Notes under the pieces: model-generated | What the model saw: only the letters and a program-made list of their open reading frames with translations | Databases searched by the model: none | What the model was told of the DNA's origin: nothing | NCBI GenBank assembly: GCA_964217375.1 | Contig: CAXPJQ010000014.1 | Location: 1-46,750, forward strand | Length of the DNA: 46,750 bases | Direction of reading: 5' to 3' | Origin: Bdellovibrionales bacterium | GTDB taxonomy: Archaea > Nanobdellota > Nanobdellia > Woesearchaeales > UBA583 | Position numbers and translations under genes: made by a program | Part shown: piece after piece, positions 12,826-34,811 of the stretch | Numbering within the stretch: position 1 is the stretch's first letter | How the letters are laid out: each line of letters opens with the position of its first letter

Positions 12826-12881
12826 AGCGACTGGCGGGAATTGAACCCGCGACCTCTGCATTACCAATGCAACGCTCTACC
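12826..12881 (-). pseudogene. 3' portion (about nt 18-72 plus discriminator) of host tRNA-Thr(GGU), ending in the attL core
   Basis: The reverse complement reads GGTAGAGC-G-TTGCA-TTGGTAA-TGCAG-AGGTC-GCGGG-TTCAATT-CCCGC-CAGTCGC-T. The sequence 5' of it (CAGCCGATTGCTGAGC) cannot pair with the 3' acceptor strand. Confidence 0.75.
12861..12881. repeat. attL core: 21-bp direct repeat ttaccaatgcaacgctctacc
   Basis: Identical 21-mer at 34996-35016. Similarity extends 7 more nt with 2 mismatches (gctcagc vs actgagc). Confidence 0.85.
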
Positions 12882-13744
12882 GCTCAGCAATCGGCTGTAA
12901 GCCTCAAGAACGGGGATTTGAGAGAAGTGAAGGGAGTTTTAGTTTATATCGTATATACGAAAAAAATTATTCTAAGTATTTAGAGTATATTGAGCAGTAC
13001 TCTCCTTGTTATAGAAAGTCTATGTTTTATGCTATTCAAAAGTTGTTTAAAGAGATAAAAACAATAAATGAACCTAAGGACATTCTTGCGACTATTAAGA
13101 AGAAACGATTAGATATACAGTATTCGATGAAATGTCTTCGGAATTGGCTTAATTTCTGTGAGCAAGAGGAGTTAATGGATGAGTTTAACCTTCATAAGTA
13201 TCGTAAGAAGTTTAAAATCCCTCAGCAACATAAACCAGATGTGTTTGTTCCGTCAAAAACTCAAGTAGATAGTTCTTTTGCTCAAGTTAGAGATTATTCT
13301 TATATGGACTATATAGTTATGAGAGTTTTGCTTGAAAGTGGTTGTAGGATTACTGAGTTGAAGTATTTTATTGAAACATTTAATCCTTCTTTGGTTACAA
13401 TTGAGAATGGTGTTGCTTGTTATCCTCTAACTTATCTTAGACATAATAAGAACTCTTACTTTATGTTTATGAGTGAGAATACTTTTAATGAATATGTTAA
13501 GCTCACAGAGGAGTTGAAGGGATACAAGATTTGTAAACTAATAACACATATTAGAAGACATAAGTTAACGCCTATGAAATATTATCGTAAGTATGCATTT
13601 ACCTTAATGATTGACTGTGAGATTGATATGGAAATTGCTAACTATATCCAAGGTCGTGTTTCAAGTAATATTGGAGTAAATCATTATCTTGCTAAGAAGC
13701 AAATTGCAATAAAAGAATACAAGAAGTTTTTGGAGGTCATTTAG
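12882..13744 (+). CDS. Int(C): C-terminal catalytic part of a partitioned SSV-type tyrosine recombinase
   Basis: The frame is open from 12845 through the att core into the track ORF 13022..13744, with no stop between 12845 and 13744. Tyrosine-recombinase-like motifs are LLESGCRITEL (box I Arg), YYRKYAFTLM (box II Arg) and GVNHYLAKK (candidate catalytic Tyr). Confidence 0.7.
12946..12960. repeat. Second copy of the atatcgtatatacga motif (contains the 12-bp perfect palindrome tcgtatatacga, 12949-12960)
   Basis: The 15-mer is identical to 34786-34800. It lies 65 nt from attL inside the Int(C) reading frame. Confidence 0.6.
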
Positions 13745-14201
13745 TTATAATCTCCCATTCTGGGATTCTATCAACTCTCCTGTTTGCTCCACTTGATGAA
13801 GGAAGAACAACTGTTTCATATCCTAATTCTTCAAAGACTCTTTTATGTTCTCCAGCTTTTTTTCCGTTTAAACAAATTAGTTTTATGTTTGGATATTGTT
13901 GTTTTAGTTTTGAAAAATCATTTAATTCCTCATCTTTGATATTACTATCAAGACTTCCCTCTCTATAGCTTTGATGAAATACATCCCACAGACCAATAAA
14001 ATGTTTCTTTAATGATTGGAGTTTAGTTTTATAATCTGTTTTAAAATCTTCATTCAATACATCTCCAAGTAATTTCCAGAAATCATTTGTTTTCTTTGCA
14101 TAGTATTCTTGTTTTTCTATTGATTCATCTCCTGGAAGAGAACCTAAGATTAATATCTTAGTTGTTTCATTTATTATTGGTTTTAATCCTTGCTTTATCA
14201 T
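13737..14201 (-). CDS. Family-6 uracil-DNA-glycosylase superfamily protein (hypoxanthine-DNA / DNA-deoxyinosine glycosylase-like)
   Basis: Family-typical pattern ILILGSLPGDES...YYAKKTNDFW...GLWDV...REGSLDSNI...LNDF...NGKKA...LPSSSGANRR. Confidence 0.7.
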   Translation of the reverse strand: MIKQGLKPIINETTKILILGSLPGDESIEKQEYYAKKTNDFWKLLGDVLNEDFKTDYKTKLQSLKKHFIGLWDVFHQSYREGSLDSNIKDEELNDFSKLKQQYPNIKLICLNGKKAGEHKRVFEELGYETVVLPSSSGANRRVDRIPEWEIITK

Positions 14202-14971
14202 TCTCTTATAACTTCTAATTGTGATTCAATATCTTCAATTAATGAATTAACATTATCAACTAATTGATTTAACATTTCAAGTGTTATTGTAATATCATTG
14301 CCATCTTTGTCTTTTCCATTCCTATGAACTAAGTCGTGTCTATTCATTACTCCTTTTATTAAAATACTCAAGTCTTCAGGGAAATTAATATCAAATACAA
14401 TTTTATATAAACTTTTTACTTTAGGAAGATTGTGATACATTAATTCGTTTAATTCCTTAGATACTTCTCCTCTCATAAAATCATATATGTCTTCAATTTC
14501 CTTTTCTTCAGTTTTAATTAATATCTGCGGGAGCGTGAACTTTATTTCGTTATTAAATGGTTTATATTTAAGTATAAACTCTTTCATAAAATCATAATCA
14601 TTTAAGACATTATATTTTAATGCATCTCCAAGGTAAGTTTCCATTATTGTTATTGTGTTTATATAAAAGAGTCTAATAAAAAAATCATTTTGTTCTAATG
14701 ATTCTAAAAGTTCAAAATTATTAACAGCTTTTTTTATCTCTTTGATTCCATTCAATGCATTAAGATAATATTCTGAAGGTATATCCTCAAAATCTGGTTC
14801 TGCCATATCTACATCTCTAAAAGTAGAATAACCACAAGCCCTACAAGAAAAAGAATGTTCGAATCCAGCAAGATAATTTGCTTGTTGTCCATCAGACATA
14901 TCTTCTAAATCTTCATAATCTTCTTCAAGTAGGCATTCTCCACAACTAGGACATATTTCTTCTTCAACCAT
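14198..14971 (-). CDS. Zinc-ribbon protein with a C-terminal HEPN-like (Rx4H) domain
   Basis: N-terminal CPSCGEC...CRACGY. C-terminal helical region with VMNRHDLVHRNG (R-x4-H). Family not identified. Confidence 0.4.
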   Translation of the reverse strand: MVEEEICPSCGECLLEEDYEDLEDMSDGQQANYLAGFEHSFSCRACGYSTFRDVDMAEPDFEDIPSEYYLNALNGIKEIKKAVNNFELLESLEQNDFFIRLFYINTITIMETYLGDALKYNVLNDYDFMKEFILKYKPFNNEIKFTLPQILIKTEEKEIEDIYDFMRGEVSKELNELMYHNLPKVKSLYKIVFDINFPEDLSILIKGVMNRHDLVHRNGKDKDGNDITITLEMLNQLVDNVNSLIEDIESQLEVIRE

Positions 14972-16703
14972 TTTTAGACATTATTCTATAAATCTTATCA
15001 TATTGCTTTTCATTTAAGATATTTTTGTTTTTTTCAACAATATCATCTAAAAATAATACTGCAATTTCCAATTCATTTAATTTAGCCAGTTCTTCATCAT
15101 CAAGATATGGTCTTTCAAAAAAGAAAAGTTTTTTTATGATTGTTTTATTATTCATATCAAGTTTTCTTTCTTTACAGTATTTTGGAAGATATTTTATTAC
15201 ATCATCAAAGTGTTTTTTTACAGTTTTTATATCTGCATAATTTGTTTTAGATTGTATTACATATATTTCATTTTCAGTTACTATTAATGAATCAATTTCT
15301 CCTTTGTCAAACTCGTGTCCCCAGTCAATGTGAATTATTTTATCCTTAATTGTTTTGATGTTTATGTATAAATGAATTAACTCATTTAGCATACTATTTG
15401 AATCTTTAAGTGAGTTTTCTAACATTACTTTTTTTACAAAATTCCTACAATGCTTTGATAAATAATTATGAAATATTTTAGGTTCTATTGAATATTCTAA
15501 ATAATTGAACTTATCTTTATGCTCTTCTAATAAAATATCCATTCGCATTTTGCCATTTGACCTATATCCATCTTTTGCACTTAAAGCGGTATCTTTAAAT
15601 AATAACCAATAAGAACCATTTGATAGGCTTGTTCCTTGATAGATATAAATTAAATAAGAATGTGCATAATCAACTTTTGAAGTATTATATTTAAACTCAA
15701 TAATTTCTGTTTTTTCGTTTCTCATTAAAGAAAAGAGAACAAGCTGAAAGAATATAGGAAATGTTTCATCATATCCATGTTTTACTGATGATTCATTAAT
15801 ATAATCAATATTTTGAAGCATTATATCTCTATTTCTTAATAATACTTTTAAATCTCTTTCTGAGGTTATTTTTTCAATATAGTTTTTATGGCTGATACTA
15901 TAGTCTACATCATATATATCTTTTCCAAATTCAAAATCTAATTCTGCAATAACATAATCTCTAATTCTACATCCTAAATGATGTATCTCTCCCCATGTTG
16001 AGGCATCCTTAAAAGATTTTAACAATTTATTATCTACTTTATTTTCAAATAAATATGCAATAGTTATAGCGAAACCTTTAATATAATTTGAAACATTATT
16101 TTTTACTTCCTCTGTATAAAATGAGTATTTTTCATAGTCTTCAAAAGGCAACAGATTATAAAAATAATCTTTTGGTCCGGAGTATTCAAATTTATCAGTT
16201 TTCAAATCATAATCTCCATCTAAATAAGGTTTGCTATTTGCAATTAGAAATAAAAAAACATTTTCTTTTTTTACACCTTTATTTTTTTTGTATTTAGTGT
16301 TATCAAAATAATATTTTTGTATCTCCTTTATTTTTTTAAGAAAGTTGCTAATTATATTATCTAAATCAGATTTAGATTTATTTAACCTTTTATCTTCTAT
16401 TTTTTTTCTAAACCCTTCTAATCCTTTTATTAAATCAATATCTTTACTTTTAGTTTTAATATTTTTATCTAAATGTTTGGAAGTTAAGTTTCCACTCCAA
16501 GAAATAAGTTCGTCTAAGTCATCAGAGATTAAACACTCCATAGAATGAATTAAATTATTTATTGTTAATTCTATAAGCATATAATAACCTTTTTCATATT
16601 CGCCTTCATTAATATTATTTTGTTTGAGATAATCTTTAAACTTTTTATTGATAATTGAGTTTAAGAAAAAACACTCACACTCGAGATTATCTAACCAGCT
16701 CAT
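14964..16703 (-). CDS. Large hypothetical protein with a C-terminal Mrr/NERD-like PD-(D/E/Q)xK nuclease-type motif
   Basis: C-terminal GEIDSLIVTENEIYVIQSKT (D...QxK, as in the Mrr catalytic domain). The N-terminal ~450 aa has no recognisable motif. Confidence 0.4.
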   Translation of the reverse strand: MSWLDNLECECFFLNSIINKKFKDYLKQNNINEGEYEKGYYMLIELTINNLIHSMECLISDDLDELISWSGNLTSKHLDKNIKTKSKDIDLIKGLEGFRKKIEDKRLNKSKSDLDNIISNFLKKIKEIQKYYFDNTKYKKNKGVKKENVFLFLIANSKPYLDGDYDLKTDKFEYSGPKDYFYNLLPFEDYEKYSFYTEEVKNNVSNYIKGFAITIAYLFENKVDNKLLKSFKDASTWGEIHHLGCRIRDYVIAELDFEFGKDIYDVDYSISHKNYIEKITSERDLKVLLRNRDIMLQNIDYINESSVKHGYDETFPIFFQLVLFSLMRNEKTEIIEFKYNTSKVDYAHSYLIYIYQGTSLSNGSYWLLFKDTALSAKDGYRSNGKMRMDILLEEHKDKFNYLEYSIEPKIFHNYLSKHCRNFVKKVMLENSLKDSNSMLNELIHLYINIKTIKDKIIHIDWGHEFDKGEIDSLIVTENEIYVIQSKTNYADIKTVKKHFDDVIKYLPKYCKERKLDMNNKTIIKKLFFFERPYLDDEELAKLNELEIAVLFLDDIVEKNKNILNEKQYDKIYRIMSKNG

Positions 16704-17213
16704 TTATTCTACCTCAATTCTTAAGTCCCATAGTTTAGTTTTTGCATCCTTCTCATCTTCTCCTTGCTTATAATCATACCAGAATAAATATTGTATTTCA
16801 TATAGTCCTTTTTTGTTTGGATTAAACTCGTAATTGAATATTCCTTCTCCATTACCGTTGATTATTAATTCTTTATCTTCAGTTCTTTGTATTGAGTATT
16901 CTTTTATTTCTTCTCCATCTAATTTAATTGAATTAACTTTTACATTTGCGGGGATTGAACCCTCATAATTTGACTTAAAAAGTAATGATATATTCATCAT
17001 ATCTTTTTCTCTTGCTGTGTCTTGTTGAGGTGAGGAGATTAGAATGTCATTATTTAAACTACCTTTTCCCAAAGCATTTATTTTATTTGTTTGATAAACA
17101 TCAACTCCTATTGACAATAATGCAATTGCAATACTTAAAATACTAATCCAAAATGTCCAATTAATCTTTTTCTTTTCTTTTTCAACTTTTGGTTTATTCT
17201 CTGATTTGGACAT
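16704..17213 (-). CDS. N-terminally membrane-anchored beta-rich protein
   Basis: Lys-rich N-terminus, one TM segment (WTFWISILSIAIALLSIGV), then a beta-strand-like domain. Its stop abuts the start of the next gene. Confidence 0.5.
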   Translation of the reverse strand: MSKSENKPKVEKEKKKINWTFWISILSIAIALLSIGVDVYQTNKINALGKGSLNNDILISSPQQDTAREKDMMNISLLFKSNYEGSIPANVKVNSIKLDGEEIKEYSIQRTEDKELIINGNGEGIFNYEFNPNKKGLYEIQYLFWYDYKQGEDEKDAKTKLWDLRIEVE

Positions 17214-17649
17214 TTTTCACCTCCGTATCTAATAACTCGTCACCTTCATATAGATTAAAAGTAAAATTATAGTTTTCTCCACCATTATCATATAATCTGG
17301 ATTCAAATTCAATAGAATAAGTTGTTATCTGGTCTGGATATAATTGGTCAAGTTCAATTTTCTCATTTAATCTTACATATCTATTATATGTTCTCCATTT
17401 ATTATCATCATAAACAATTTCTAATTCTGGTTTGATTATTGTTTTACCATCATTTATTATTTGAAATTCAATATTAATATCTTCGTTTCTTGAGAGATTA
17501 TCTGGCATATCTATTTTTTGAAAGTAATGATCTTGTAAAAAAGGAACTTTATTGTAAAACTTAGGACTACCAATAACCATAAATAATAAAACAACCACTA
17601 AAATGATTAATATTATTTGAGCATATCCTTTCTTATTTTTTCTTACCAT
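17194..17649 (-). CDS. N-terminally membrane-anchored beta-rich protein
   Basis: One TM segment (AQIILIILVVVLLFMVI) and a beta-sandwich-like remainder. It overlaps the hsdR stop by 17 nt and the next gene by 20 nt. Confidence 0.5.
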   Translation of the reverse strand: MVRKNKKGYAQIILIILVVVLLFMVIGSPKFYNKVPFLQDHYFQKIDMPDNLSRNEDINIEFQIINDGKTIIKPELEIVYDDNKWRTYNRYVRLNEKIELDQLYPDQITTYSIEFESRLYDNGGENYNFTFNLYEGDELLDTEVKNVQIRE

Positions 17650-20600
17650 ATTTCTCTTTTTCCTCCGCTACTGCCATTGGTGTTGTTTCTGTAAAACTTG
17701 GATAAGTGCTCACAGAAGATAGTTGCTCTTGTGATTCTTCATAGATATAATTACAAGACCTTTCTGCTTGTTTCATTACTGTTTCAACAGCCATCTTCTC
17801 TAAGTCTGGAGGATAACCATATTTTCTAAGTATTCTTCTGATATATACTCTCATTTTTGCCCTTACACTTTCTTTTTTATCCCAATCAATAGTAAGACTA
17901 TCTCTAATTGTTTTAGTTAGTTCAAGAGCAATTGTTTTTAATATTTCATCTCCCATAACTTTAACCGCTGAATCATTAATCTCTAATGCTTCATAGAATG
18001 CAAGTTCATCTTCATTAAGTCCAAGTTTCTCTCCTCTTTTGTGAGCTTCTCTTACTTGCTTTGCAATCTCTATTAATTCTGCGATTACTTTTGCAGTTTC
18101 AATTGTTTTGTTTTGATATTTCATAATTGCTTCTTCAAGCATCTCTGAGAACTTTTTCTCCATCACAATATTCTTTCTTAATTTAGATTTGATTTCATCA
18201 TTTAGAAGTTTTTGAAGTAGTTCTAATGCTAAGTTCTTATATGACATAGATTTTACATCTTGCAAGAACTCATCAGATAAAATTGAAATGTCTGGTTTAT
18301 CTATCCCTGCAATTGCAAATATATCTACTACTTCTTCAGAAGTTATTGCTTTAGATATTAATTGATTTAAGTTCTCATCAATAGTTGATAGACTCTTTTC
18401 TCCAGTTTCGTGTTTATCAAATTTCAAAAGAATAGCTCTTACTCCTAACATAAACTCAATCTCTTTTGCAATGTTTAATGCTTCATCACTTGATGCACAT
18501 AATGAGTGAGCTTTCTTCAATCTAATTGTATGTCTTAGATATCTCTTCTTGCTATCTTTATCTACTCCAAGAATAAAGTTTGCAGACTGTCCTAAGAATT
18601 GTAATAACTCAGAAGATTTCTTTAATTTGAAATATTTTTTATAATCAAATCCGTGAAACATCTCTTTTAGTATTTCGTGTTCTTCAAGCATTAGAGCAAT
18701 TGCTTCAGTTGTATCAATACCAATATTTTGTCTATCTTTTTGTGTATAAATTCCAAGTGCTTTCTTTAGCATATCTCCAATTCCCAAATAATCTACAATA
18801 AGTCCTGCTGATTTATTTCTAAATACTCTATTTACTCTTGAGATTGCTTGGATTAAATTATGACCTTTCATAGGTTTATCAACATACATAGTATCAATAC
18901 AAGGAGCATCAAATCCAGTAAGCCACATATCTCTAACAATTACAATTTCTAATTCATCTTTAGGGTTCTTTAATCTCTTACCTATTTCTTCTCTTCCTTC
19001 TTTGTTTCTTATATGATCTTGCATAAATTGTGGGTCTGCAGCACTTCCACTCATAATAACTTTGATCTTTCCTTTCTTGTTATCTTCATTATGCCATTCT
19101 GGTTTTAGTTTTATGATCTCATTATATAATTCAACACAGATTTTTCTTGACATACAAACTATCATAGCTTTTCCGCCAGTATCTTCTCTTCTTCTATCGA
19201 AGTGTTTTAAGATATCTTTTGCAACAAGTTTAAGTCTTTTGTTTGAACCAACTAATGCTTCAAGCCTGGACCATTTAGATTTAAGTTTTTGTTTTGAATC
19301 TAATTCTTGTGATTCTGTTAGTTCTTCGAAGTCTTCTTCAATCTTAGGGATTTGGTCTTTTAATAAACCAATCTTTGCAAGCCTACATTCATAATAAATT
19401 GGAACTGTTGCTTTATCTTTAATTGATTGTGTCATATCATACACATCGATATAATCTCCAAAGATTGCAGGAGTATTAATATCTGTTCCTTCAATAGGTG
19501 TTCCAGTAAATCCAATAAATGATGCATTAGGTAGTGCATCTCTTATATTCTTAGCAAATCCATCAATTAAATCATATTGTGTTCTGTGGGCTTCATCAGC
19601 AATCACTACAATGTTTCTCCTATCTGATAATTGAGGATATATGTCTCCTTTTTCATCTGGCATAAACTTTTGAATTGTTGTGAATATGATTCCTCCAGAT
19701 TCTACTGATAAAAGTTCTCTTAGGTTTGTTCTTGATTTTGCTTGTTGCGGAATTTGTCTTAGCAAATCTGAGGATAGTGAAAATGTATTATATAATTGCT
19801 CATCTAAGTCATTTCTATCTGTTAAAACTACAATAGTTGGATTATCTAATTCAAGAATTATTTTCCCAGTATAAAATGTCATAGTTAGACTTTTACCAGA
19901 ACCCGTTGTATGCCATACTACTCCAATTTTCTTAGTTCCGCTTGATGAAGTTGCAAGTTTTGTTTTCTCTACTGCTTTTTGAGTTGCATAGTATTGGTGA
20001 TATGCTGCAAGTATTTTATATACATTTTCTCCATCATCTTGGAATAAGATAAAATGATGTATTATTTCAAGTAGCTTTTCTCTATCAAACATTCCTTTGA
20101 TTTGAGTTTCAAGTTGCATAAAGTCATTTGTGATACTTTCTCCATCTATTGTTTTCCAACTCATAAATCTATCAAAGTCTGCAGTAATTGTTCCAGCTCT
20201 TGCGAATGTTCCATCACTAATGATTGTAAAAGCATTATATGAGAAAATTGTAGGGATATCATTTTTGTAAGTTTGGATTTGATTGTATGCTGATTTTATG
20301 TCTGCTTTCTCGTCAGTTGCATTTTTGAACTCAATTACTACTATTGGCAGTCCATTTACAAATACAATTAAATCTGGTCTTCTATTGTTTTTCTCTACTA
20401 TTGTAAATTGATTAACAACACAGAAGTCATTGTTTTTTAAGTTCTTTTTATCAAATAACCATACTTTATCTCCTTTGATTCTATTCTTATCTTTATATTC
20501 AACATCTACACCATCAGTTATATATTTATGAAATATTTTATTATTAATAGTTAAAGAAGGAGAAGATTGTATTTTTAGTTTTTTAATAGCTTCTTTTATT

Positions 20601-20797
20601 GAGCTCACAGGGATAGAAGGATTGATTTTTTTTAGAGAGTCTTCTAATTTGTCTTCCAAGATTACATCTTTATAATCTTGTCTCATTGGATTTTCTCCAT
20701 CAAAGGCAATATCTGGACCTGCAAGGTATGAGTATCCTAACTCTTCGAACCATTCAATTGCAGCTTCTTCTACTTGACTCTCTGTGAACTTTTTCAT
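17633..20797 (-). CDS. hsdR: Type I restriction enzyme R subunit
   Basis: N-terminal nuclease motif PDLIVFVNGLPIVVIEFKN. Helicase motif I TGSGKS and DEAH box (VIADEAHRTQ). Motif VI-like LIQAISRVNR. Full length at 1054 aa. Confidence 0.9.
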   Translation of the reverse strand: MKKFTESQVEEAAIEWFEELGYSYLAGPDIAFDGENPMRQDYKDVILEDKLEDSLKKINPSIPVSSIKEAIKKLKIQSSPSLTINNKIFHKYITDGVDVEYKDKNRIKGDKVWLFDKKNLKNNDFCVVNQFTIVEKNNRRPDLIVFVNGLPIVVIEFKNATDEKADIKSAYNQIQTYKNDIPTIFSYNAFTIISDGTFARAGTITADFDRFMSWKTIDGESITNDFMQLETQIKGMFDREKLLEIIHHFILFQDDGENVYKILAAYHQYYATQKAVEKTKLATSSSGTKKIGVVWHTTGSGKSLTMTFYTGKIILELDNPTIVVLTDRNDLDEQLYNTFSLSSDLLRQIPQQAKSRTNLRELLSVESGGIIFTTIQKFMPDEKGDIYPQLSDRRNIVVIADEAHRTQYDLIDGFAKNIRDALPNASFIGFTGTPIEGTDINTPAIFGDYIDVYDMTQSIKDKATVPIYYECRLAKIGLLKDQIPKIEEDFEELTESQELDSKQKLKSKWSRLEALVGSNKRLKLVAKDILKHFDRRREDTGGKAMIVCMSRKICVELYNEIIKLKPEWHNEDNKKGKIKVIMSGSAADPQFMQDHIRNKEGREEIGKRLKNPKDELEIVIVRDMWLTGFDAPCIDTMYVDKPMKGHNLIQAISRVNRVFRNKSAGLIVDYLGIGDMLKKALGIYTQKDRQNIGIDTTEAIALMLEEHEILKEMFHGFDYKKYFKLKKSSELLQFLGQSANFILGVDKDSKKRYLRHTIRLKKAHSLCASSDEALNIAKEIEFMLGVRAILLKFDKHETGEKSLSTIDENLNQLISKAITSEEVVDIFAIAGIDKPDISILSDEFLQDVKSMSYKNLALELLQKLLNDEIKSKLRKNIVMEKKFSEMLEEAIMKYQNKTIETAKVIAELIEIAKQVREAHKRGEKLGLNEDELAFYEALEINDSAVKVMGDEILKTIALELTKTIRDSLTIDWDKKESVRAKMRVYIRRILRKYGYPPDLEKMAVETVMKQAERSCNYIYEESQEQLSSVSTYPSFTETTPMAVAEEKEKYGKKK

Positions 20798-21138
20798 TCT
20801 TTACTTAAATTAGAAACATTAGTATTTATATTTGTTTCTTCTATTGTTATTATTCTTAAATCACTTTTAATTCCAAAAGCATCATATATTTTCTTTCTAT
20901 CTAATACTAAAAAGAAATATGTTCCTATAACTAAATAAATAGCGAACTTAAGTGTTTCTGGACTTAACCATCCATTATTTTTGATAGAAACAATATAATA
21001 GATTAAGATATTGACACTTGACACAATAAGGATTATTAATAATATTAATGAAACTAACCATAATATTAGAACTTTAAATGCCATCTTCCAATTAATCTTT
21101 ACTTTAATTGGTTCCATTGCTTCTATCTTAGTTGACAT
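20794..21138 (-). CDS. Small polytopic membrane protein (114 aa from the internal ATG)
   Basis: The track ORF 20794..21234 overlaps the upstream gene by 107 nt. The ATG at 21138 (MSTKIEA...) reduces this to 11 nt. Two or three hydrophobic spans. 4-nt overlap with the hsdR start. Confidence 0.45.
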   Translation of the reverse strand: MSTKIEAMEPIKVKINWKMAFKVLILWLVSLILLIILIVSSVNILIYYIVSIKNNGWLSPETLKFAIYLVIGTYFFLVLDRKKIYDAFGIKSDLRIITIEETNINTNVSNLSKE

Positions 21139-21322
21139 TTTTTTTCCTCCACAATAAAGGTTGCCCACAGTTTGGACATTGAAACATAGAACCATTAACT
21201 GGATAATTACATCTTGGACACTTATAATATTCATTTTCTCCTTTTGCTATTTTTCCTAAAAGCCAAGCACCCAATGCAAGACCTCCCAATGTTAATAATG
21301 TTTCTTTTGTGTCTTTATCCAT
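21128..21322 (-). CDS. Small TM + zinc-ribbon protein
   Basis: TM segment LLTLGGLALGAWLLGKI followed by CPRCNYP...CPNCGQ. Confidence 0.5.
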   Translation of the reverse strand: MDKDTKETLLTLGGLALGAWLLGKIAKGENEYYKCPRCNYPVNGSMFQCPNCGQPLLWRKKNVN

Positions 21323-21325
21323 TTT

Positions 21326-22549
21326 TTATTCTGGTATGTCAAATACTAATATAGTTAAATATAATTCTTTTTCAGAATCATCTTTATGTTTAAATAAATA
21401 TCTAAACCCAGTTTCATTATCATATTTTATTTCTTTTTTGAAGTTATTATGACCTTTAGCAATATCTGGAATTTGTGATATTACTTTGGACATGTCTTTG
21501 TTTCTATTAAATAAGATTATTGCAGTTTTGCTATCTCTCCAAGAAAGATAACCCAATATTTGGTCAATTGTTTTTAACAAGTTTTCTTTCCCTTTCCAGA
21601 ACTTACATTCACAAATAAATAAGTTTTTACCTTCAGATCTTATTAAAATATCAGTCTTACCTTCATAATTGAATGTCTCTCCTGTTGCTTGACCTTCATA
21701 TTGTCCATTTAATTGAACTAAGAAATGTTGTCTTATACTTTCTTCATCCATTTTAGAGAAAGCTTTTGGACTTCTTTCCATTACATAAGTCATATTAGAA
21801 AGAATCCTTAAAATATTATCATATTCATTTAAATCAATTATTGGTTCTGGTTTTGAATTAGAAGTAACAGTTGGTTTACTAATTACAACTTTTCTTTTTA
21901 CTTCTGGAACTGTATATGTATTTGTACTATCTTCTCTTTTTTTTAATGGAAATCCTAATTCTGAAACTATATCGTGATTTTTCAACAATGTTTCTTTTCT
22001 TTTTTTTATAGTTGATTCAATTAATGAATCTATAGAAGAATTGTAACTTGAAACTTCTTGTTTTATCCACTCTAACCATTTATTGATTTCAGAATAAGTT
22101 CTATCAAATTCAGATTTTAATGCAGAAGTCTCTTTATCTAAAACTGTTATTTCAATTGTTAATTCATCATTTCTTATTTCAGCTTGTGGGGGGTTTGTAG
22201 TATAAGTTGAAGACCTATAATTAAATAAGAAATCATCTCCTTCAAATGGGATATGATATATAACTTTTAAACTTTTAACATAAAAAGGTCTACTTCTATC
22301 CATAATCATTCTTCTTGGATCTTGACTTATATCTACATCTTCTTCTTTTTTGTCAATATATATTTCTTCCTCTTTTAATTCTGGACAATTAAGTAAATAT
22401 TTGTTTAATAGGTATTGTTTGTACTCATCAACATTAATATTTAATATATAATCTTCAATTTGACTATTTATTTCTGCAGAGATTTTATTCTTCTTATCTT
22501 CCAAGAAGTCTCTCAAAATTCCACTATTAAATAATAATCTTGAACTCAT
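21326..22549 (-). CDS. Hypothetical protein with a C-terminal PD-(D/E)xK nuclease-type motif
   Basis: GKTDILIRSEGKNLFICECKFWKG (D...ExK) in the C-terminal third. The N-terminal part is coiled-coil-like with no recognised family. Confidence 0.5.
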   Translation of the reverse strand: MSSRLLFNSGILRDFLEDKKNKISAEINSQIEDYILNINVDEYKQYLLNKYLLNCPELKEEEIYIDKKEEDVDISQDPRRMIMDRSRPFYVKSLKVIYHIPFEGDDFLFNYRSSTYTTNPPQAEIRNDELTIEITVLDKETSALKSEFDRTYSEINKWLEWIKQEVSSYNSSIDSLIESTIKKRKETLLKNHDIVSELGFPLKKREDSTNTYTVPEVKRKVVISKPTVTSNSKPEPIIDLNEYDNILRILSNMTYVMERSPKAFSKMDEESIRQHFLVQLNGQYEGQATGETFNYEGKTDILIRSEGKNLFICECKFWKGKENLLKTIDQILGYLSWRDSKTAIILFNRNKDMSKVISQIPDIAKGHNNFKKEIKYDNETGFRYLFKHKDDSEKELYLTILVFDIPE

Positions 22550-22550
22550 T

Positions 22551-23777
22551 TTATTTCACCCTTATTTCTCCAGACATTAGTTTTGGTAGTAAAGAATCTC
22601 TTATTTGTTTTAGAGATTCTATTTCATCTACAATATTCAGTATTTGATTATATATTGGTTCTAATTCATTAGAAAATTGTTTTGTAATTTTATTCGATTC
22701 AAAAAACTTCATAAATCTGACAGATTTCCCTGCATGCTTAATTGTAGTACCATTCGAATATTCATTAATTGTGTTTTGAATTTGGTTTGATTTCATTAAA
22801 AAATATACCAAAGATTGTTTATAATTTGATTCATTAAGAGGAATTATTTTTTTTATTCCTGTTGAAAAAATTCCTTCAAAACCTACTTTTACAATTCCTA
22901 TTGTCCCATCAAATGATACAATTACATCATTTTTTTCACAAGTTTTATCTGTTTCTATGTCAGTATATAATTCTTCATTTCTCATTCCAGTTAGATTTCC
23001 TACTCTAATAAATATTTTTCCAATTTTCTCAAAATTATAATTATTTCTTCCAGGTTCAATTCCTGTAACAAAATCTAATTCTGTGTTTAAATCTACAACA
23101 TTCCAATCTTTAGGAATTAATCCCAACTCACTTTCAACCATTTCTCCCCCAGAAGATTGATAAGGTTCTCCTTCTTGATTGGGGAAATCGAAATCTACAA
23201 ACCATCTTTTAAAAATTGCTTGTCCAAGTTCTTCTAAATTATCATTGATTTTCTTATTAATCTCTATTTTGTCATCTAACTCAGAGAGTACTTTTGCAAT
23301 TGCTTTTTGTTCTTCAATAGAAGGCAAATTTACTTCTATCAAATCAAAAGTATTTTTAGTTATAGTATCAAACACTGAACCGTGAGTAGAACCTTTAATA
23401 TTTTTCAATTTATACTTTAGTAAATAGTAAATATAATCATTAATACTAACATTATTTATTTCTCTTAAACCATAACAAGATTGGTTAAAAGCCATTTCCT
23501 TTCCTAATTGTGCAATTGCTCCAACTGTACCTCTTGCAGAAATAATTATATCTCCTTTATTCAGTAACTTGGTAGAACTTTCTTTTAATCCTTTTTCTGT
23601 TATTGTTTTTTCAGTTGTGTATACTTTTCGATAATCATCATTAAAATCAACTACAGATAACCAATTAATATCTCCATTCCAATACTCTTTTACGCTTGTT
23701 TTAGGAGTTCCACCCCCAATAATTTGGACTATTTCTGAAAAATGTTTTCTTGACCAATTATTATTCTTAATTTCCAT
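22551..23777 (-). CDS. hsdS: Type I restriction-modification specificity subunit
   Basis: Two target-recognition-domain halves, each followed by a helical spacer (SIEEQKAIAKVLSELDDKIE ; ESLKQIRDSLLPKLMSGEIRV). N-terminal IGGGTPKT motif. Confidence 0.85.
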   Translation of the reverse strand: MEIKNNNWSRKHFSEIVQIIGGGTPKTSVKEYWNGDINWLSVVDFNDDYRKVYTTEKTITEKGLKESSTKLLNKGDIIISARGTVGAIAQLGKEMAFNQSCYGLREINNVSINDYIYYLLKYKLKNIKGSTHGSVFDTITKNTFDLIEVNLPSIEEQKAIAKVLSELDDKIEINKKINDNLEELGQAIFKRWFVDFDFPNQEGEPYQSSGGEMVESELGLIPKDWNVVDLNTELDFVTGIEPGRNNYNFEKIGKIFIRVGNLTGMRNEELYTDIETDKTCEKNDVIVSFDGTIGIVKVGFEGIFSTGIKKIIPLNESNYKQSLVYFLMKSNQIQNTINEYSNGTTIKHAGKSVRFMKFFESNKITKQFSNELEPIYNQILNIVDEIESLKQIRDSLLPKLMSGEIRVK

Positions 23778-24798
23778 TTTCTACCTCCTCAATTTCATCA
23801 ATATTACTTGTGATTATTTCTTTAGCAAATTCTTCAAATAATATTCTAATTTCATAACATTTATTATTATATTTTAATCTCGTGTATAATACCTTATAAC
23901 CTGCATTTAAATCCTCTCCCTCAAAATAAAGATAGTTATTGTTATTAAACTCTTCAATTCCATTTCCCCAATCAATTATTTCAACATCCGTGTCACTTAT
24001 TTTCTCATTCAAAAAACTACCTAATAAATTACTAATTTCTTTTTTATAGTATTGGTCTCTCATATATTTTACAATTTCAGGGTATTTTTCAAATAAATGG
24101 TAATAACTATTCAGTTTTTTAAACAAATCTTCTATAGTATAAAATATAGTTAGATTCTTTTCTTTTTTTTCTTCAAATTCTGTTTCCAATTCAGAAGTAA
24201 AATCACTATCGTTTTCTGTTAATAAATAAAAATAATCAAACTCTTCTTGTATTTCTGATTGTATGAAGGTTTCCCAAATCAAACAATCTTTAAAACCTTT
24301 ATCAGAGCCAGTTGAAGAAATACTAAAGGGTTTTCTTCCTTCAAACACTTTTACATACAATTTTTTTAATACTTCTTCTGATTTTGAAAAATCTAAGTCT
24401 AAGACTTTAATGTAATTTTTACTTTTAATAAAATCAATTACTTTTTTAGAAATGTAATCTTCATATTTAAATGAGTCGTCTGGAATCTTTACCGAAGAGA
24501 AATCACATACTTCCATATTTTTAAATAAATCTATTTTAGGAACAAATGTATCAAATGCATTTTTAAAATTAGTTTTTTTAGATTTAAAGAACTCATCTAA
24601 TGAGACTTGTGTGATCCCTATTGAAATCATATCTTGGAGTTCATTCTCTTCAATGTATTTAATTAAACTATAAAAATTGCCTTTAAAGTTTATTTCTGAA
24701 TAGTCTTTTTCCCAACTTTGATTAACTCTAATAATATTTGTATCTATCAATATAAATGATTTGCCTGTTTGTATTGGAGTTTGAATTATTTGTTCCAT
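23767..24798 (-). CDS. PIN-like (DUF4935-type) putative nuclease inserted between hsdM and hsdS
   Basis: Acidic residues in PIN order: FILIDTNI, QVSLDEF, DKGFKDCLIWE, LLTENDSDF. A C-terminal ~130 aa is of unknown function. Confidence 0.5.
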   Translation of the reverse strand: MEQIIQTPIQTGKSFILIDTNIIRVNQSWEKDYSEINFKGNFYSLIKYIEENELQDMISIGITQVSLDEFFKSKKTNFKNAFDTFVPKIDLFKNMEVCDFSSVKIPDDSFKYEDYISKKVIDFIKSKNYIKVLDLDFSKSEEVLKKLYVKVFEGRKPFSISSTGSDKGFKDCLIWETFIQSEIQEEFDYFYLLTENDSDFTSELETEFEEKKEKNLTIFYTIEDLFKKLNSYYHLFEKYPEIVKYMRDQYYKKEISNLLGSFLNEKISDTDVEIIDWGNGIEEFNNNNYLYFEGEDLNAGYKVLYTRLKYNNKCYEIRILFEEFAKEIITSNIDEIEEVENGN

Positions 24799-24804
24799 TT
24801 TACA

Positions 24805-26322
24805 TCAAAACTCATAGCCCAACCCTCCTAAGTTTTTACGAATATCTTCTTCAAGTTCTCTGGATTTTGCAAATTGTTCTGCAAGTTCAGAAGTTAGTCT
24901 ATTCATTTTGTCTTCAAATGGTTCTTCATCTTCTTCAATATCAGCAACTCCTACATATCTTCCAGGAGTTAAGATGTGTTCGTGTTTTCTAATCTCTTCA
25001 AGCGTTGCACTTTTGCAGAATCCTTTTTCATCTTCATATGTTCCTTCTTTTGTTCCTCTCCAAATATGATAAGTATCTGAAATCTTTGCAATATCTTCTG
25101 GAGTTAGTTCTCTATGTTTTCTATCTACTAATTCTCCCATATGCCGAGCATCAATAAATAAAACTTCTCCATTTCTTTTTCTATCACGAGCAACAAACCA
25201 TAAACAAACAGGGATTCCAGTACTATAAAATAACTTATCTGGAAGTGCTACAATACAGTCTACTTTGTCATCCTCAACAATTTGTTTTCTAATCTCACCT
25301 TCATTAGAAGTATTAGAACTCATTGAACCATTTGCTAAAACAAAACCAGCCACTCCTTTAGGTGATAAGTGATGAATAAAATGTTGTACCCAAGCAAAGT
25401 TTGCATTGCCCACAGGAGGGATACCATATTTCCATCTTACATCTTCTTTTATTCTTTCTCCACCCCAATCTGAAATATTAAACGGAGGATTTGCAATGAT
25501 GAAATCTGCCTTTAAATCTTTATGAACATCATTGTGGAAGGTATCAGCGTGATGTGGTCCAATATTTCCCCTAATTCCTCTAATTGCAAGATTCATTACA
25601 CATAACCTCCAAGTAGTTGGATTACTTTCTTGTCCATAAATTGAAAGGTCATCTAATTTTCCACCGTGTGCTTCTACAAACTTCTCTGATTGTACAAACA
25701 TACCACCACTACCACACGCAGGGTCGTAGATTCTTCCTTTATATGGTTCAAGCATTTCAACTAATAACTCTACAATAGATTTAGGTGTATAGAATTCTCC
25801 ACCACCTTTTCCTTCAGCAGAAGCAAACCTTCCCAAGAAATACTCATAAACTCTACCCAGTAGGTCCTTTCCTCTATTTTCAGAGTCTCCAAGCATAATA
25901 GAACTGATTAAATCAATAATTTGCCCAAGTCTTTGTTTATCAAGAGCAGGTTTAGAATAATCTTTTGGCAATACTCCTTTAAGTGATGGATTTTCTCTCT
26001 CAATTACAACCATAGCTTCATCTAAGATTTGACCAATAGTTGGTAGTTTAGCACTTTTTTGAATATAACTCCATCTTGCAGAAGGTGGAACCCAGAAACC
26101 GTTCTTTGCAATATACTCATCCTTCTCTTCTGGATCTGCATATTCTTCTTTTTGTAATTCTTCATAGATTTCTTCAAAACTATCTGAAATGTATTTTAAA
26201 AATAAAAGACCTAAAATAACATGCTTATATTCTGCAGGGTCCATGTTATTTCTCATCATATCAGCTGCTTTCCACAACTTTTCTTCAAATCCTATATTGG
26301 CTCCATTACCATTACTTTTCAT
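24805..26322 (-). CDS. hsdM: Type I restriction-modification N6-adenine DNA methyltransferase subunit
   Basis: HsdM N-domain ([36 protein letters not shown]), SAM motif [10 protein letters not shown] and catalytic motif IV IANPPFN. Confidence 0.9.
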
Positions 26323-26358
26323 CTTAAAAATCTTTCACTTAACTTATTTATAAAAGTT

Positions 26359-26379
26359 ACTTATAACTAATTTATAAGT
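26359..26379. promoter_or_regulatory. 8-bp inverted repeat (acttataa-ctaat-ttataagt) between the wHTH gene and hsdM
   Basis: Read directly. It lies 37-57 nt upstream of the hsdM start (26322) and 46 nt downstream of the wHTH stop. Confidence 0.25.
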
Positions 26380-26424
26380 TATCTACAATTTATTTTCAAG
26401 AATAAATGATTTTGGGATAAAAAA

Positions 26425-26688
26425 TTAAAGATTTTTCAACTCTTCGCTGATTTTTTCACCAATTTCTGTTAATTTGTACAACTTTCCAAGGTGACTATCT
26501 GGGTTTAAACATACTACAACACCCTTCTCACTTAGTACTTTTAACACATTACTAACATTTCCAAAGTTCAACTGAGTTTCTTTACGAATCAACATTGGAG
26601 TTTTTGGAACATTTAATGCTTTAACAACTTTAACTCTTTGACTTCCCGAAAGAACCCAAGAATATAATTCCAATATCTTTTCATCCAT
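26425..26688 (-). CDS. Small winged-helix transcription regulator
   Basis: 87 aa. HTH-like segment PMLIRKETQLNFGNVSNVLKVLSEKGVV followed by a wing (GKLYKLTEIG). Confidence 0.55.
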   Translation of the reverse strand: MDEKILELYSWVLSGSQRVKVVKALNVPKTPMLIRKETQLNFGNVSNVLKVLSEKGVVVCLNPDSHLGKLYKLTEIGEKISEELKNL

Positions 26689-26788
26689 AAATTATTTGCA
26701 AGTCATCTATAAATAAAAAGAAAGTTGCGTTTGAATTGTAATTGAATTGCAAAAGATTTTTAAAACAATAAAAACACAAGATAGTATT

Positions 26789-27319
26789 ATGAGTAAAAAA
26801 GATGAAAAAAATGAAAAAAGTTGGTTTAGAAGACATCCTATTTTAACGGTTATATTAGGATTAGTTATCTTAGGAATGATTGGAAGTTTCTTAGAAAAAT
26901 CTGAGGAAGCAGTTAAAACTAATAGTTTAAGTTTAGATTCTCAAACAGATTTAACCCAAATCATTCTTCCAAATGATAAAATACCCACAAAATACTACCT
27001 AAGTGAAAAAGAATTTGAGTTAAATGAAAGTGGATTTATTTCAGGTTATAAAAAAAACTTAGCTGAATCTGATGGATTTAGTGGAACTGCTATAACAATT
27101 ACATTTAGCAAATTCTCAGATACATCTCAATCTTTAAACTATTATAATAAATTAACAAATGAAATTAAAGATGCAAGAGGTTATGAAGAAAAAACAGTTT
27201 ATTCTCCATTTGAATGTTTTGCTTATCAAAAAGAATTAGGAATGAATAATCAAAATGAAGTAATTTGTTATAAAGATAATATTGTATTTAGTATAAAAGG
27301 AATTGGTTTTATGTATTAG
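26789..27319 (+). CDS. Membrane-anchored hypothetical protein
   Basis: The track ORF starts at a TTG (26747), but the ATG at 26789 (MSKKDEK...) is more plausible. One TM segment (ILTVILGLVILGMIGSFL) and an extracytoplasmic domain. Confidence 0.45.
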   Translation: MSKKDEKNEKSWFRRHPILTVILGLVILGMIGSFLEKSEEAVKTNSLSLDSQTDLTQIILPNDKIPTKYYLSEKEFELNESGFISGYKKNLAESDGFSGTAITITFSKFSDTSQSLNYYNKLTNEIKDARGYEEKTVYSPFECFAYQKELGMNNQNEVICYKDNIVFSIKGIGFMY

Positions 27320-27366
27320 TATGATTTAGAAGATTTATTTGATTTACAAAAAGAACATATCTTAAA

Positions 27367-27732
27367 TTAATAATATAATATTTTTGATATTTTATCATTA
27401 TACTTTCTTAACTTTTTTAATAGATTAAATGTTGGCATTTTAAGCTCTGACCTCAAAGTTACTTCTGTTGCAATTATAGATCTTTCTCTTTCAATTCTTG
27501 TTATCATTATTGATTTAATTAATTCCTTTCTTCTAAAAATTATTTCATCTGCAATACGATTTACAGTTGTATGAGAAACATTATGTTTTCTTGCTAATTG
27601 AGACCTGTTCCAAAAAAAACCATATTTATTTATTGTATGATTAATATCCTCTTTTAATCTTCTTTTTGCTCTATATCTTAATTGTCCATTATTTTTGTGA
27701 GTATTAAGATTATAATATACAAACTTTTTCAT
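27367..27732 (-). CDS. Small HTH DNA-binding protein
   Basis: HTH-like RSQLARKHNVSHTTVNRIADEI. The internal ATG at 27732 (MKKFVYY...) is preferred over the Cys/Phe-rich N-terminal extension of the track ORF. Confidence 0.4.
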   Translation of the reverse strand: MKKFVYYNLNTHKNNGQLRYRAKRRLKEDINHTINKYGFFWNRSQLARKHNVSHTTVNRIADEIIFRRKELIKSIMITRIERERSIIATEVTLRSELKMPTFNLLKKLRKYNDKISKILYY

Positions 27733-27893
27733 AGAATTATTATGATTTTCAACTTTTATATATTTATTTTTACAAAATTGAACGCAACATAAGAGCAAAA
27801 AAATAAAGATGTATATACAATGTTTATACATTTAGCTTTTTCTTTATAAATAAATAAGAAAAATACTATCAAATGTATAACTTTAATATAGAT

Positions 27894-28259
27894 TCACATT
27901 TTGGCAGTAAGTTTCTTGATATAATTAGTTAATGAACCAATAATTTCATCCAACATTTCAGACAGTCTATCATAAGTTCTGGAACTTATATATTCTAAAT
28001 CTTTAGCTACTAATAATTGATATTCTACTTCTTTCGCAGAACCTAAAGAGTGATGGAGGAATTGTTTATAGTCTTTTATAGTATTTCTCCCCGATCCTTC
28101 TGCAATATTTGAGCCAATACTTGTAACTGCTCTTTTTATTTGATTAGTTAAAGAGAATTGCTCATCCTTTGGGAAGTCCTTTGTTGCTTTGTAAACTTCA
28201 AGAGTTAATTGATGAGCTCTTTTAAAAAAGTTTAAATCTTTATAATTTACTGCTACCAT
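27894..28259 (-). CDS. Four-helix-bundle protein (23S rRNA intervening-sequence protein / Avd-like family)
   Basis: Family-typical YKDL.F.KRAHQLTLEVYKATKDFPKDEQFSLTNQIKRAVTSIGSNIAEGSGR...EVEYQL. Confidence 0.75.
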   Translation of the reverse strand: MVAVNYKDLNFFKRAHQLTLEVYKATKDFPKDEQFSLTNQIKRAVTSIGSNIAEGSGRNTIKDYKQFLHHSLGSAKEVEYQLLVAKDLEYISSRTYDRLSEMLDEIIGSLTNYIKKLTAKM

Positions 28260-28260
28260 T

Positions 28261-31147: not shown

Positions 31148-31423
31148 TTAATCTTCACCTCTTTGTTCTGATTCTTTATACTTCAATAAATACCAGGAGT
31201 ATAAATCATTTAACATTGTGATTAATTCTGGAATCTCTTTTATGTTAAAATTAACAGTATTCTTATTCCATTCTCCATCTTTGTTGTATGACTTAGATAA
31301 TCCTAAAGTCATAATTTCATACTCATCTCCTTCTTTTTGTACCTTGTTTTTCCATAAAGTTGTTTCAACAAGTTTAACTCTTTGTTTTCTAATTGGTTTA
31401 TTGTTCTCCATTTTCTTTTGCAT
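31148..31423 (-). CDS. Small conserved protein, paralogue of 39832..40080 (function unknown; a PC4/YdbC-like ssDNA-binding fold is only a guess)
   Basis: Motifs shared with the paralogue: W-K-x-K, EY, (S/N)Y(N/K)(K/D)..G...K.T..FNI.(E/D)IP..I..L...YS. Confidence 0.45.
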   Translation of the reverse strand: MQKKMENNKPIRKQRVKLVETTLWKNKVQKEGDEYEIMTLGLSKSYNKDGEWNKNTVNFNIKEIPELITMLNDLYSWYLLKYKESEQRGED

Positions 31424-31538
31424 TTAAATAATAAATAAGACTTACTTTGATAAGTCCAGAAAGCTTTTGACCATTCCTTTCTGCATATTTCTCGGCTCTT
31501 AAAGCCACTTCATCATCTAATGATATTGTTTTAATCAT
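31398..31538 (-). CDS. Ribbon-helix-helix (CopG/Arc-like) protein
   Basis: From the internal ATG at 31538: MIKTISLDDEVALRAEKYAERNGQKLSGLIKVSLIYYL (beta-strand plus two helices). It is the first gene of the replication operon, as in pRN-type plasmids. Confidence 0.55.
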   Translation of the reverse strand: MIKTISLDDEVALRAEKYAERNGQKLSGLIKVSLIYYLNAKENGEQ

Positions 31539-31602
31539 TGTAATAAAACCATTAAAAAGCATTAAGTTTAAATAAACAGGAATATTTATAATCAATTAAG
31601 TT

Positions 31603-34711: not shown

Positions 34712-34785
34712 ATACAACTTATTTATAAATATATTTCTCTCTACTGTGAGCCAAGAAATGACAACCCTTTTAAAATCTGCTTGCG

Positions 34786-34803: not shown

Positions 34804-34811
34804 TTTGAAAA

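Follow-up and report, generated by a model that had tools for sequence, protein, structure and literature searches.

Defence genes have been found nested within Hma, BREX, DISARM and type I restriction–modification (R-M) loci, and 145 candidates, including the PDC series, are known from such loci (Payne et al., bioRxiv 10.1101/2024.01.29.577857). The embedded genes are same-oriented in 96.7% of cases, and the members of the PDC series are candidates whose anti-phage activity is yet to be tested (Payne et al., bioRxiv 10.1101/2024.01.29.577857). TgvAB, a type IV pair embedded in the type I operon of the Vibrio cholerae island VPI-2, is an experimentally tested example that gives complementary protection and works apart from the R-M genes (PMC11411939). 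The DUF4935 (PIN_12) family is of unknown function and its genes are mostly monocistronic; coupling of PIN genes with subunits of type I enzymes was noted in only several cases (Matelska et al., 2017, PMC5499597). Here, we describe a string of twelve genes built around a type I R-M system and carried by a mobile element of an archaeon. It lies in a 46,750-nucleotide (nt) stretch of DNA, hereafter the window (contig CAXPJQ010000014.1 of assembly GCA_964217375.1, positions 1 to 46,750).

In a preliminary description, made from the letters of the DNA alone, the twelve genes were put forward as a single, so far undescribed composite defence system. That proposal does not survive comparison with a sister element, in which near-identical HsdM and HsdR proteins (98.7–99.8% identity) keep company with unrelated cargo. 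We consider it likely that the string is a modular scaffold with exchangeable, independent defence cargo, and not one obligate twelve-part machine.

The gene string and its sister element

Twelve minus-strand genes, running from position 26322 down to 13737, form one co-oriented string in the list of open reading frames (ORFs). The coordinates reproduce this string and every one of the eleven junctions given in the preliminary description. From hsdM to the last gene, which encodes a protein of 154 amino acids (aa), these are a gap of 6 nt, an overlap of 11, gaps of 1 and 3, overlaps of 11, 4, 17 and 20, an abutting pair, and overlaps of 8 and 4. All 11 of the 11 junctions are thus overlaps or gaps of at most 6 nt, against 4 of the 15 same-strand junctions elsewhere in the window (Fisher, one-sided p = 1.8e-4), and such spacing is therefore not the local norm and lies beyond chance; three of the four tight junctions outside the string are within the same mobile element. 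The start of the sixth gene is the sole ambiguity: the ATG at 21138 gives 114 aa and the longest ORF, from 21234, gives 146 aa. The 114-aa start was also picked when the genes of this contig were called independently. At 25% G+C random codons are stops in approximately 9% of cases, and open frames of 151 and 169 codons, as found for two small genes of the string, are therefore very unlikely to arise by chance (approximately 1e-6 per frame). Furthermore, GC and AT skews across 14–26 kb uniformly fit minus-strand coding. To judge from this geometry, the twelve genes probably form one transcription unit.

The claim of a complete type I R-M system is borne out, since all expected domains are present in the three subunits. 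The hsdM gene (24805–26322) encodes a methyltransferase of 505 aa with the domains N6_Mtase (PF02384, 1.4e-114) and HsdM_N (PF12161, 7.9e-28), and matches the PADLOC model MTase_I at 1e-248. The specificity subunit HsdS (22551–23777, 408 aa) shows two Methylase_S stretches (PF01420, 2.1e-38), corresponding to two target-recognition domains, and a full-length match to the PADLOC model Specificity_I (4.5e-101). The restriction and translocase subunit HsdR (17633–20797, 1054 aa) combines an N-terminal nuclease domain (HSDR_N, 3.3e-52), a superfamily 2 translocase (SWI2_SNF2, 3.4e-78) and a C-terminal region matching T1R_D3 and T1RH-like_C (5.7e-124). By their domains, HsdM, HsdS and HsdR appear to make up a complete, ordinary type I R-M system. 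The nine remaining genes had been described as interleaved with the R-M genes. This applies to four of them, which are nested between hsd genes, whereas five follow hsdR as an appended set. The folds first proposed mostly hold, namely a PIN-like protein, a PD-(D/E)xK protein, a membrane-bound zinc ribbon, a HEPN protein with a zinc ribbon and a family 6 uracil-DNA glycosylase (UDG).

The sister element was recovered on contig L106, and also on contigs L098 and L099, the sources being a Joint Genome Institute metagenome and an NCBI metagenome-assembled genome. At the protein level, HsdM of window and L106 is 99.8% identical, HsdR 98.7%, the terminal glycosylase 94.2%, the integrase 99.2%, a winged helix-turn-helix protein 96.6%, an IVP-like protein 97.5% and an 868-aa protein 94%, with HsdS at only 35%. 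The order of genes in L106 is hsdM, SduA_C (Shedu-like, 427 aa), hsdS, Abi_C (294 aa), a zinc ribbon (57 aa), a membrane protein (102 aa), hsdR, ASCH, a QueC-like protein (758 aa), a 212-aa protein and the glycosylase. The PIN gene of the window is thus replaced by SduA_C and its PDC-S54 gene by Abi_C, and the four genes that follow hsdR in the window give way to those for ASCH, the QueC-like protein and the 212-aa protein. Every junction of the sister string is likewise an overlap or a gap of at most 6 nt.

At the DNA level (blastn), window and L106 are approximately 95% identical in 12859–14214, 17629–20807 and 24787–30864, and the identity breaks off 4–18 nt from gene ends. Between these conserved blocks lie two variable regions. 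Variable region 1, between hsdM and hsdR (20808–24786), contains hsdS and retains similarity only in the hsdS core (23103–23312, 81%); variable region 2, between hsdR and the glycosylase gene (14215–17628), shows no blastn similarity to the sister. More distant chromosomal relatives, in which HsdM and HsdR are 89% identical, have a third occupant of the hsdM/hsdS slot, a 470-aa protein whose family matches HATPase_c_4 and a helix-turn-helix (HTH) domain in contig L006. After hsdR, one of these relatives (L102) has no same-strand gene and another (L107) has two small ones.

Since HsdM and HsdR stay near-identical while the cargo of the sister differs, there is no co-variation between the R-M enzyme genes and the cargo. 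This bears directly on the proposal of a single integrated composite system made up of all twelve genes, with the extra nucleases and membrane proteins as obligate partners of the type I enzyme. Eleven consecutive coupled junctions on one strand and four predicted nucleases within one string are what such a system would be expected to display; however, the cargo is unrelated in every slot next to practically the same enzyme. Equally tight junctions join different genes in the sister, so that tight translational coupling is a property of the scaffold and no mark of particular partnerships. In addition, relatives of the 579-, 257- and 407-aa proteins are found apart from one another and, in many cases, away from hsd genes. 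A neighbourhood survey, suggested in the preliminary description as a check on the linkage of the inserted genes to one another, was run with these three families, and their homologues never co-occur. An integrated twelve-gene system is on these grounds highly improbable.

With a modular scaffold, HsdM and HsdS would methylate host DNA and HsdR would cut unmethylated incoming DNA, whereas the operon as a whole would act as a scaffold for two exchangeable regions, the first between hsdM and hsdR (including hsdS) and the second between hsdR and the glycosylase gene. The cargo would consist of a PIN RNase, PDC-S54, a 579-aa PD-(D/E)xK-like nuclease, small membrane proteins and a HEPN RNase with a zinc ribbon, presumably all transcribed from a promoter just upstream of hsdM. 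Exchange of cargo between related elements would most likely proceed by recombination between homologous flanks (hsdM, hsdR and the glycosylase gene) and, as the cargo is swapped inside conserved flanks, new cargo would inherit both the expression of the operon and its mobility. The result may be a layered immunity in which restriction acts first and the nuclease effectors next, the RNases leading to abortive infection and the DNases attacking foreign DNA. The PIN gene would be the exception to this free exchange, its family specialising in living inside type I operons.

Cargo families within and outside the operon

The slot between hsdM and hsdS is occupied by a gene (23767–24798) for a 343-aa protein that found no match in Pfam at E ≤ 0.1 and none in PADLOC, and only itself in a word-indexed protein search. 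An exhaustive HMMER search gave 249 representative relatives, and 33 of 40 aligned relatives match PIN_12 (PF16289, DUF4935), the best at 3e-21. The acidic residues of the PIN fold are conserved among the 40 sequences, D19 being nearly invariant and E69 and D171 invariant. The AlphaFold2 model has a pLDDT (predicted local distance difference test) of 89.5, and its Foldseek matches are VapC2, VapC4, 1y82 and 1w8i (probability 0.84–0.99, TM-score on the target, TMt, 0.48–0.64). The protein is predicted to be an RNase of the PIN_12 family with a VapC-like fold. PADLOC holds no model for its relatives, and neither the protein nor its relatives match an ATPase or PrrC in PADLOC or Pfam.

To sample the genomic context of this family, metagenomes were scanned for the motifs of the PIN alignment, which gave 80 loci, chosen blind to context. 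A search of these loci with the proteins of the window found hsdM in 68, hsdS in 68 and hsdR in 50, and 73 of the 74 informative loci are linked to hsd genes. Seven loci are without hsd genes, six of them on contigs shorter than 1.8 kb. The order hsdM, PIN, hsdS, (hsdR) on the same strand is found in 68 of the 73 hsd-linked loci; the PIN gene lies between hsdS and hsdR in four others and after hsdR in one. The link holds after dereplication, in 54 of 60 PIN clusters at 90% identity and also across 27 clusters at 40%. The PIN gene overlaps hsdM by a median of 11 nt and hsdS by a median of 4 nt. Linkage to R-M genes, which the preliminary description had proposed to survey for the inserted genes, is thus confirmed for the PIN subfamily, whereas the contexts of 579-, 257- and 407-aa homologues proved varied. 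Genes of this PIN subfamily nearly always lie within type I operons, and the subfamily is specialised for life inside them.

The sampled loci also carry other cargo. Among the 46 that have both hsdS and hsdR, 37 carry further same-strand genes between these two, and genes are appended after hsdR in 6 of the 19 evaluable loci. The 73 cargo proteins from all slots fall into 49 clusters and include PDC-S45, PDC-S05 (RhuM), AbiTii, PDC-M68B and OLD/Gabija-like ATPases. None of the 80 loci contains a homologue of any other cargo gene of the window. Four embedded genes are also found in three of the loci (L021, L045 and L075). The cargo load of the window, with four embedded and five appended genes, is at the upper end among the loci examined.

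The constancy of this position invites a more specific interpretation, in which the PIN protein would act as a latent RNase monitoring the state of the type I enzyme, kept inactive by HsdM and HsdS and released, as PrrC is, upon viral anti-restriction. PrrC in EcoprrI provides a precedent (PMC12707154). The near-exclusive hsd linkage on one strand between hsdM and hsdS, the median overlaps with both neighbours and the persistence of the link through clustering at both thresholds all speak for such a role, as do the retained catalytic acidic residues, the VapC-like fold and the fact that an antitoxin-like partner gene is not visible. On the other hand, an HsdM that is 99.8% identical sits with a Shedu-like gene in place of the PIN gene, so the enzyme does not need it; strict embedding could also reflect hitch-hiking with hsdS in specificity swaps, and DUF4935 genes were mostly monocistronic in an earlier survey (PMC5499597). 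We regard such a latent sensor as possible but rather doubtful. In its general form, that the PIN_12 subfamily may supply many type I R-M systems with a dedicated fourth component, a guardian RNase that would read the state of HsdM and HsdS and cause abortive infection when restriction is blocked, the suggestion is likewise a tentative one. If true, the PIN protein would be a second counterpart of PrrC, structurally unrelated, far more widespread and missing from current defence catalogues. A guardian role would leave the rest of the cargo independent, and would refine a modular scaffold rather than exclude it.

Downstream of hsdS, the second nested gene (21326–22549) encodes a 407-aa protein with a C-terminal PD-(D/E)xK motif. 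It matches the PADLOC model PDLC05036 (PDC-S54) at 4.9e-156, residues 1–406 aligning with positions 1–407 of the 410 in the profile, and its motif D300...E314-C-K316 is invariant in five homologues from archaea and bacteria. Relatives of PDC-S54 occur solo or abutting type III R-M genes, and a PDB sequence search with the 407-aa protein gave no match. The next two genes encode small proteins. The first (21128–21322), of 64 aa, combines a hydrophobic helix at its N-terminus with a CxxC...CxxC zinc ribbon, the zinc-ribbon Pfam matches all being below the gathering score, and the second (20794–21138) is the 114-aa protein, with two membrane helices predicted by a hydropathy scan. At the same positions in the sister (9516–9994 of L106) lie a diverged 57-aa homologue of the former and a weak 102-aa homologue of the latter. 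The pair is thus found directly upstream of hsdR in both elements, diverged past DNA similarity, and a chromosomal relative has a single membrane and zinc-ribbon protein in its place (14236–14598 of L102).

In variable region 2, the first two genes encode proteins of 151 aa (17194–17649) and 169 aa (16704–17213), each with an N-terminal membrane helix (membrane-like segments at residues 5–33 and 17–41, respectively). Neither protein has a match in Pfam, PADLOC or NCBIfam. The idea that the two are paralogues was rejected, as they show no detectable mutual similarity.

The third gene of this region (14964–16703) encodes a 579-aa protein of a rare family, with only 6 homologues, consisting of a helical N-terminal part and a C-terminal nuclease-like domain. 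Residues D460, E469, D471, Q484 and K486 of the C-terminus are invariant in 6 sequences. The model has a pLDDT of approximately 80–89 in this part, and its top Foldseek matches are AF1548, Can2, NucS and SfsA, and also BspD6I, with weak E-values (approximately 4e-3) and probabilities of approximately 1. The C-terminus is predicted to be PD-(D/E)xK-like, with a restriction-endonuclease-like fold. The label Mrr/NERD-like given to it earlier is accordingly upheld as regards the fold, but not as regards NERD (PF08378), since that match covers 24 residues at E = 0.039 and, with 14.9 bits against a cutoff of 22.1, stays below the gathering score. A PDB sequence search with the 579-aa alignment gave no match. 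Homologous genes lie beside a truncated hsdR and a weak 611-aa paralogue (L002), in an island with an integrase and DUF3800 (L003–L005), within another type I operon (L006–L008) and before an ApeA-HEPN gene (168–3400 of L111); none of the other cargo genes of the window is present in any of these contexts.

The fourth gene (14198–14971) encodes a 257-aa predicted RNase, in which an N-terminal CxxC...CxxC zinc-ribbon region is followed by a predicted HEPN domain of the RiboL-PSP type. The protein itself has no PF18735 match at E ≤ 0.1, and many of its 216 homologues carry a precomputed one; the catalytic motif R211-x4-H216 (R211-HDLV-H216, of the Rx4-6H type) is invariant in 14 sequences. The family has a wide distribution among bacteria; its N-terminal domains vary and its neighbours are unrelated. 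The closest relative (57%) follows a set of ASCH, QueC-like and 566-aa genes. The neighbours of 566, 570, 571 and 611 aa seen next to genes of the 579- and 257-aa families were considered as a hidden common partner and set aside, as BLAST and Pfam gave no support, except that the 611-aa protein is weakly similar to the 579-aa family. As a separate observation, the pair of ASCH and the 758-aa QueC-like protein recurs (70% and 58% identical, respectively) in two places, after hsdR in L106 (13159–15818) and on an unrelated contig, L009 (1441–4094), and may be an uncharacterised two-gene defence module.

The string ends with a conserved backbone gene (13737–14201) for a 154-aa hypoxanthine-DNA glycosylase of UDG family 6, which matches the equivalog TIGR04274 at 5.6e-53 (179 bits against a cutoff of 80) and PF03167 at 4.5e-11. 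NCBIfam names only this protein. PADLOC has no model for the 579-, 257-, 151-, 169-, 64- and 114-aa proteins, and viral contig scans with the 343-, 154-, 169-, 151- and 868-aa proteins gave no relatives.

Could the cargo serve purposes other than antiviral defence? The toxin-like nucleases might be addiction or maintenance modules, and other genes might be housekeeping genes of the element, with the glycosylase, for example, acting in DNA repair. PIN and HEPN are folds typical of toxins, the integrase and att repeats mark the element as mobile, and the glycosylase, which is backbone and not cargo, matches a repair-enzyme equivalog. Antitoxin partners are not evident, however, and elsewhere the same slots hold recognised or candidate defence genes (SduA_C, Abi_C, AbiTii, PDC-S05, PDC-S45 and OLD/Gabija-like ATPases); moreover, the element also bears a GmrSD-type restriction gene. 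Cargo without an antiviral role therefore seems unlikely to us, and a scaffold for defence genes remains our preferred interpretation.

Several observations weigh against full modularity. The near-exclusive embedding of the PIN gene suggests real functional coupling for at least one gene, so that the cargo would not all be independent. A HEPN gene follows the 579-family gene in two of five contexts (RiboL-PSP in the window, ApeA in L111), and the two may form a two-gene module of a nuclease and a downstream HEPN RNase, or may be brought together by a coincidence of defence islands. Because the zinc-ribbon and membrane-protein pair recurs before hsdR in both elements, with a membrane and ribbon protein in a third relative, there are hints that it may belong to the R-M lineage rather than to the free cargo. 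For the 151- and 169-aa proteins no relatives were found in viral contig scans or in the search of the 80 PIN loci, and their independence is presumptive. Furthermore, the defence role is putative for each cargo gene, PDC-S54 itself being a candidate only, and the single transcript is deduced solely from gene geometry.

The mobile element and its host

The preliminary description placed the genes on a mobile element, and integrase, tRNA repeats and ends of sister similarity agree with this. An archaeal tyrosine integrase of 240 aa (13022–13744, plus strand; PF16795, 1.4e-26) is convergent with the string. A 31-nt imperfect direct repeat (28 of 31 positions match in a local alignment) marks the left end of the element at 12858–12888, in the 3' part of a split tRNA-Thr(GGT) gene, and the right end at 34993–35023, in the 5' half of the same gene. 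The 3' part extends over approximately 12826–12888 (Rfam partial match 12834–12888) and the 5' half over approximately 34993–35035, neither being intact. Because the split tRNA pieces share the repeat and similarity to the sister contigs stops at 12859 (L106) and 35004 (L098), the region reads as an element of approximately 22 kb inserted into, and splitting, a tRNA-Thr gene. A split tRNA of the Nanoarchaeota kind was rejected, since the pieces overlap by the 31-nt repeat and coincide with the ends of sister similarity. The element has an intact tRNA-Thr(GGT) of its own at 32557–32628, approximately 71% similar to the split gene, which may replace the lost tRNA gene.

The host is a DPANN archaeon (Woesearchaeota/Nanoarchaeota): proteins that cluster with HsdM and HsdR bear the label Candidatus Woesearchaeota or Nanoarchaeota, and the flanks of the sister contigs carry archaeal ribosomal proteins. 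A scan for sigma-70 promoters and terminators was left unused, the host being archaeal and the DNA 25% G+C. Directly upstream of hsdM, a minus-strand gene (26425–26688) encodes an 87-aa winged-helix protein (HTH_45, 2.2e-5, just below the gathering score) that may be a regulator. The candidate promoter region (26345–26379, minus strand), read by eye, consists of an 8-bp perfect inverted repeat, ACTTATAA-N5-TTATAAGT, and an abutting TATA-like box, TTTTATAAATA, approximately 28 nt before the ATG of hsdM. The winged-helix gene and the inverted repeat are a candidate controller and operator pair for the operon.

Other genes of the element were observed in passing. A 725-aa restriction gene of the GmrSD_N type (type IV, modification-dependent; 32675–34852, minus strand) is 92% identical at the nt level in L098, and the element thus bears both modification-blocked and modification-dependent restriction. 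A third variable region separates window (31418–32592) and L098 (3862–4904). In the window it holds a 317-aa ORF with faint, sub-threshold matches to zinc-binding proteins and the 3' part of the tRNA-Thr of the element; in L098 there is instead an HTH_5 protein on the opposite strand, and ARAGORN finds no tRNA. A four-helix protein resembling 23S rRNA-IVP and bAvd (27894–28259, minus strand) is encoded directly after the 868-aa protein (28261–30867, minus strand), which has only a faint match to the MCM winged helix and is probably the replication protein of the element; both are conserved in the sister. Outside the element, a host gene at 1855–4047 (plus strand) combines an AAA_33 kinase, a phosphoesterase and a T4-type RNA ligase in a Pnkp-like RNA repair protein, which is notable beside an element rich in predicted RNases.

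Comparison with known systems

The suggestion that the architecture itself is undescribed does not stand, as embedding in type I R-M loci is already catalogued and the 407-aa protein is the known candidate PDC-S54. As in the 'guilt-by-embedding' survey, genes are nested on the same strand between hsd genes, the cargo is diverse and replaceable, and PDC-S54 is among those nested (Payne et al., bioRxiv 10.1101/2024.01.29.577857). The window differs from the published loci in its four embedded plus five appended genes, its DPANN host and its location on an integrative element; its PIN, 579- and 257-aa proteins match no model of PADLOC v2, and the swap is directly visible from the sister element, its breakpoints lying at gene ends. 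Neither PDC-S54 nor PIN_12 appears in the parts of the supplement of that survey covered here, which says little because most of its tables, those of Pfam and of PDC assignment included, lie partly outside these parts.

Like PrrC of EcoprrI, the PIN protein is a predicted RNase encoded inside a type I operon and belongs to a family near-exclusive to this context. In contrast to PrrC, which combines an ABC-ATPase with an anticodon nuclease, the 343-aa protein is of the PIN_12 type and has no sequence relation to it. The PrrC gene is located between hsdS and hsdR in the prr locus, whereas the PIN gene of the window sits between hsdM and hsdS, and a masking effect of the R-M enzyme, demonstrated for PrrC, is a hypothesis for PIN. 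With the DUF4935/PIN_12 proteins surveyed earlier (PMC5499597) it shares a length of approximately 340 aa, a VapC-like PIN domain at the N-terminus that has conserved acidic residues, and an alpha/beta part at the C-terminus that is uncharacterised, and its Foldseek matches 1w8i and 1y82 are two of the three PDB relatives named there (1w8i, 1y82 and 3tnd). Unlike the mostly monocistronic genes of that survey, the sampled PIN subfamily is almost always nested in type I operons.

The likeness to TgvAB is that a type I operon on a mobile island has defence genes embedded in it. The protein families are different, TgvAB being GmrSD-like, and the GmrSD-type gene of the window is outside the operon (32675–34852). 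With P2/P4 hotspots and tRNA-anchored islands (PMC12707154) the element shares a near-identical backbone with varied cargo at fixed positions and, like them, is integrase-borne and anchored at a tRNA gene. Here, however, the conserved flanks are hsdM and hsdR, and hsdS is swapped along with the cargo.

If our interpretation is right, the type I operon of an archaeal mobile element acts as a docking platform that can be followed base by base, blocks of defence genes being exchanged together with hsdS while hsdM and hsdR stay near-identical. Such exchange of cargo would help to explain the varied defence repertoire of the very small DPANN genomes. It also carries a warning that tight translational coupling alone is no marker of a functional complex. 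The locus yields three candidates: the PIN RNase family between hsdM and hsdS, the rare 579-aa nuclease family in R-M or island contexts, and the small pair of a zinc-ribbon and a membrane protein that recurs just upstream of hsdR. Set against the described systems, the window is a rich example of the published pattern of embedded defence genes, a modular defence island.

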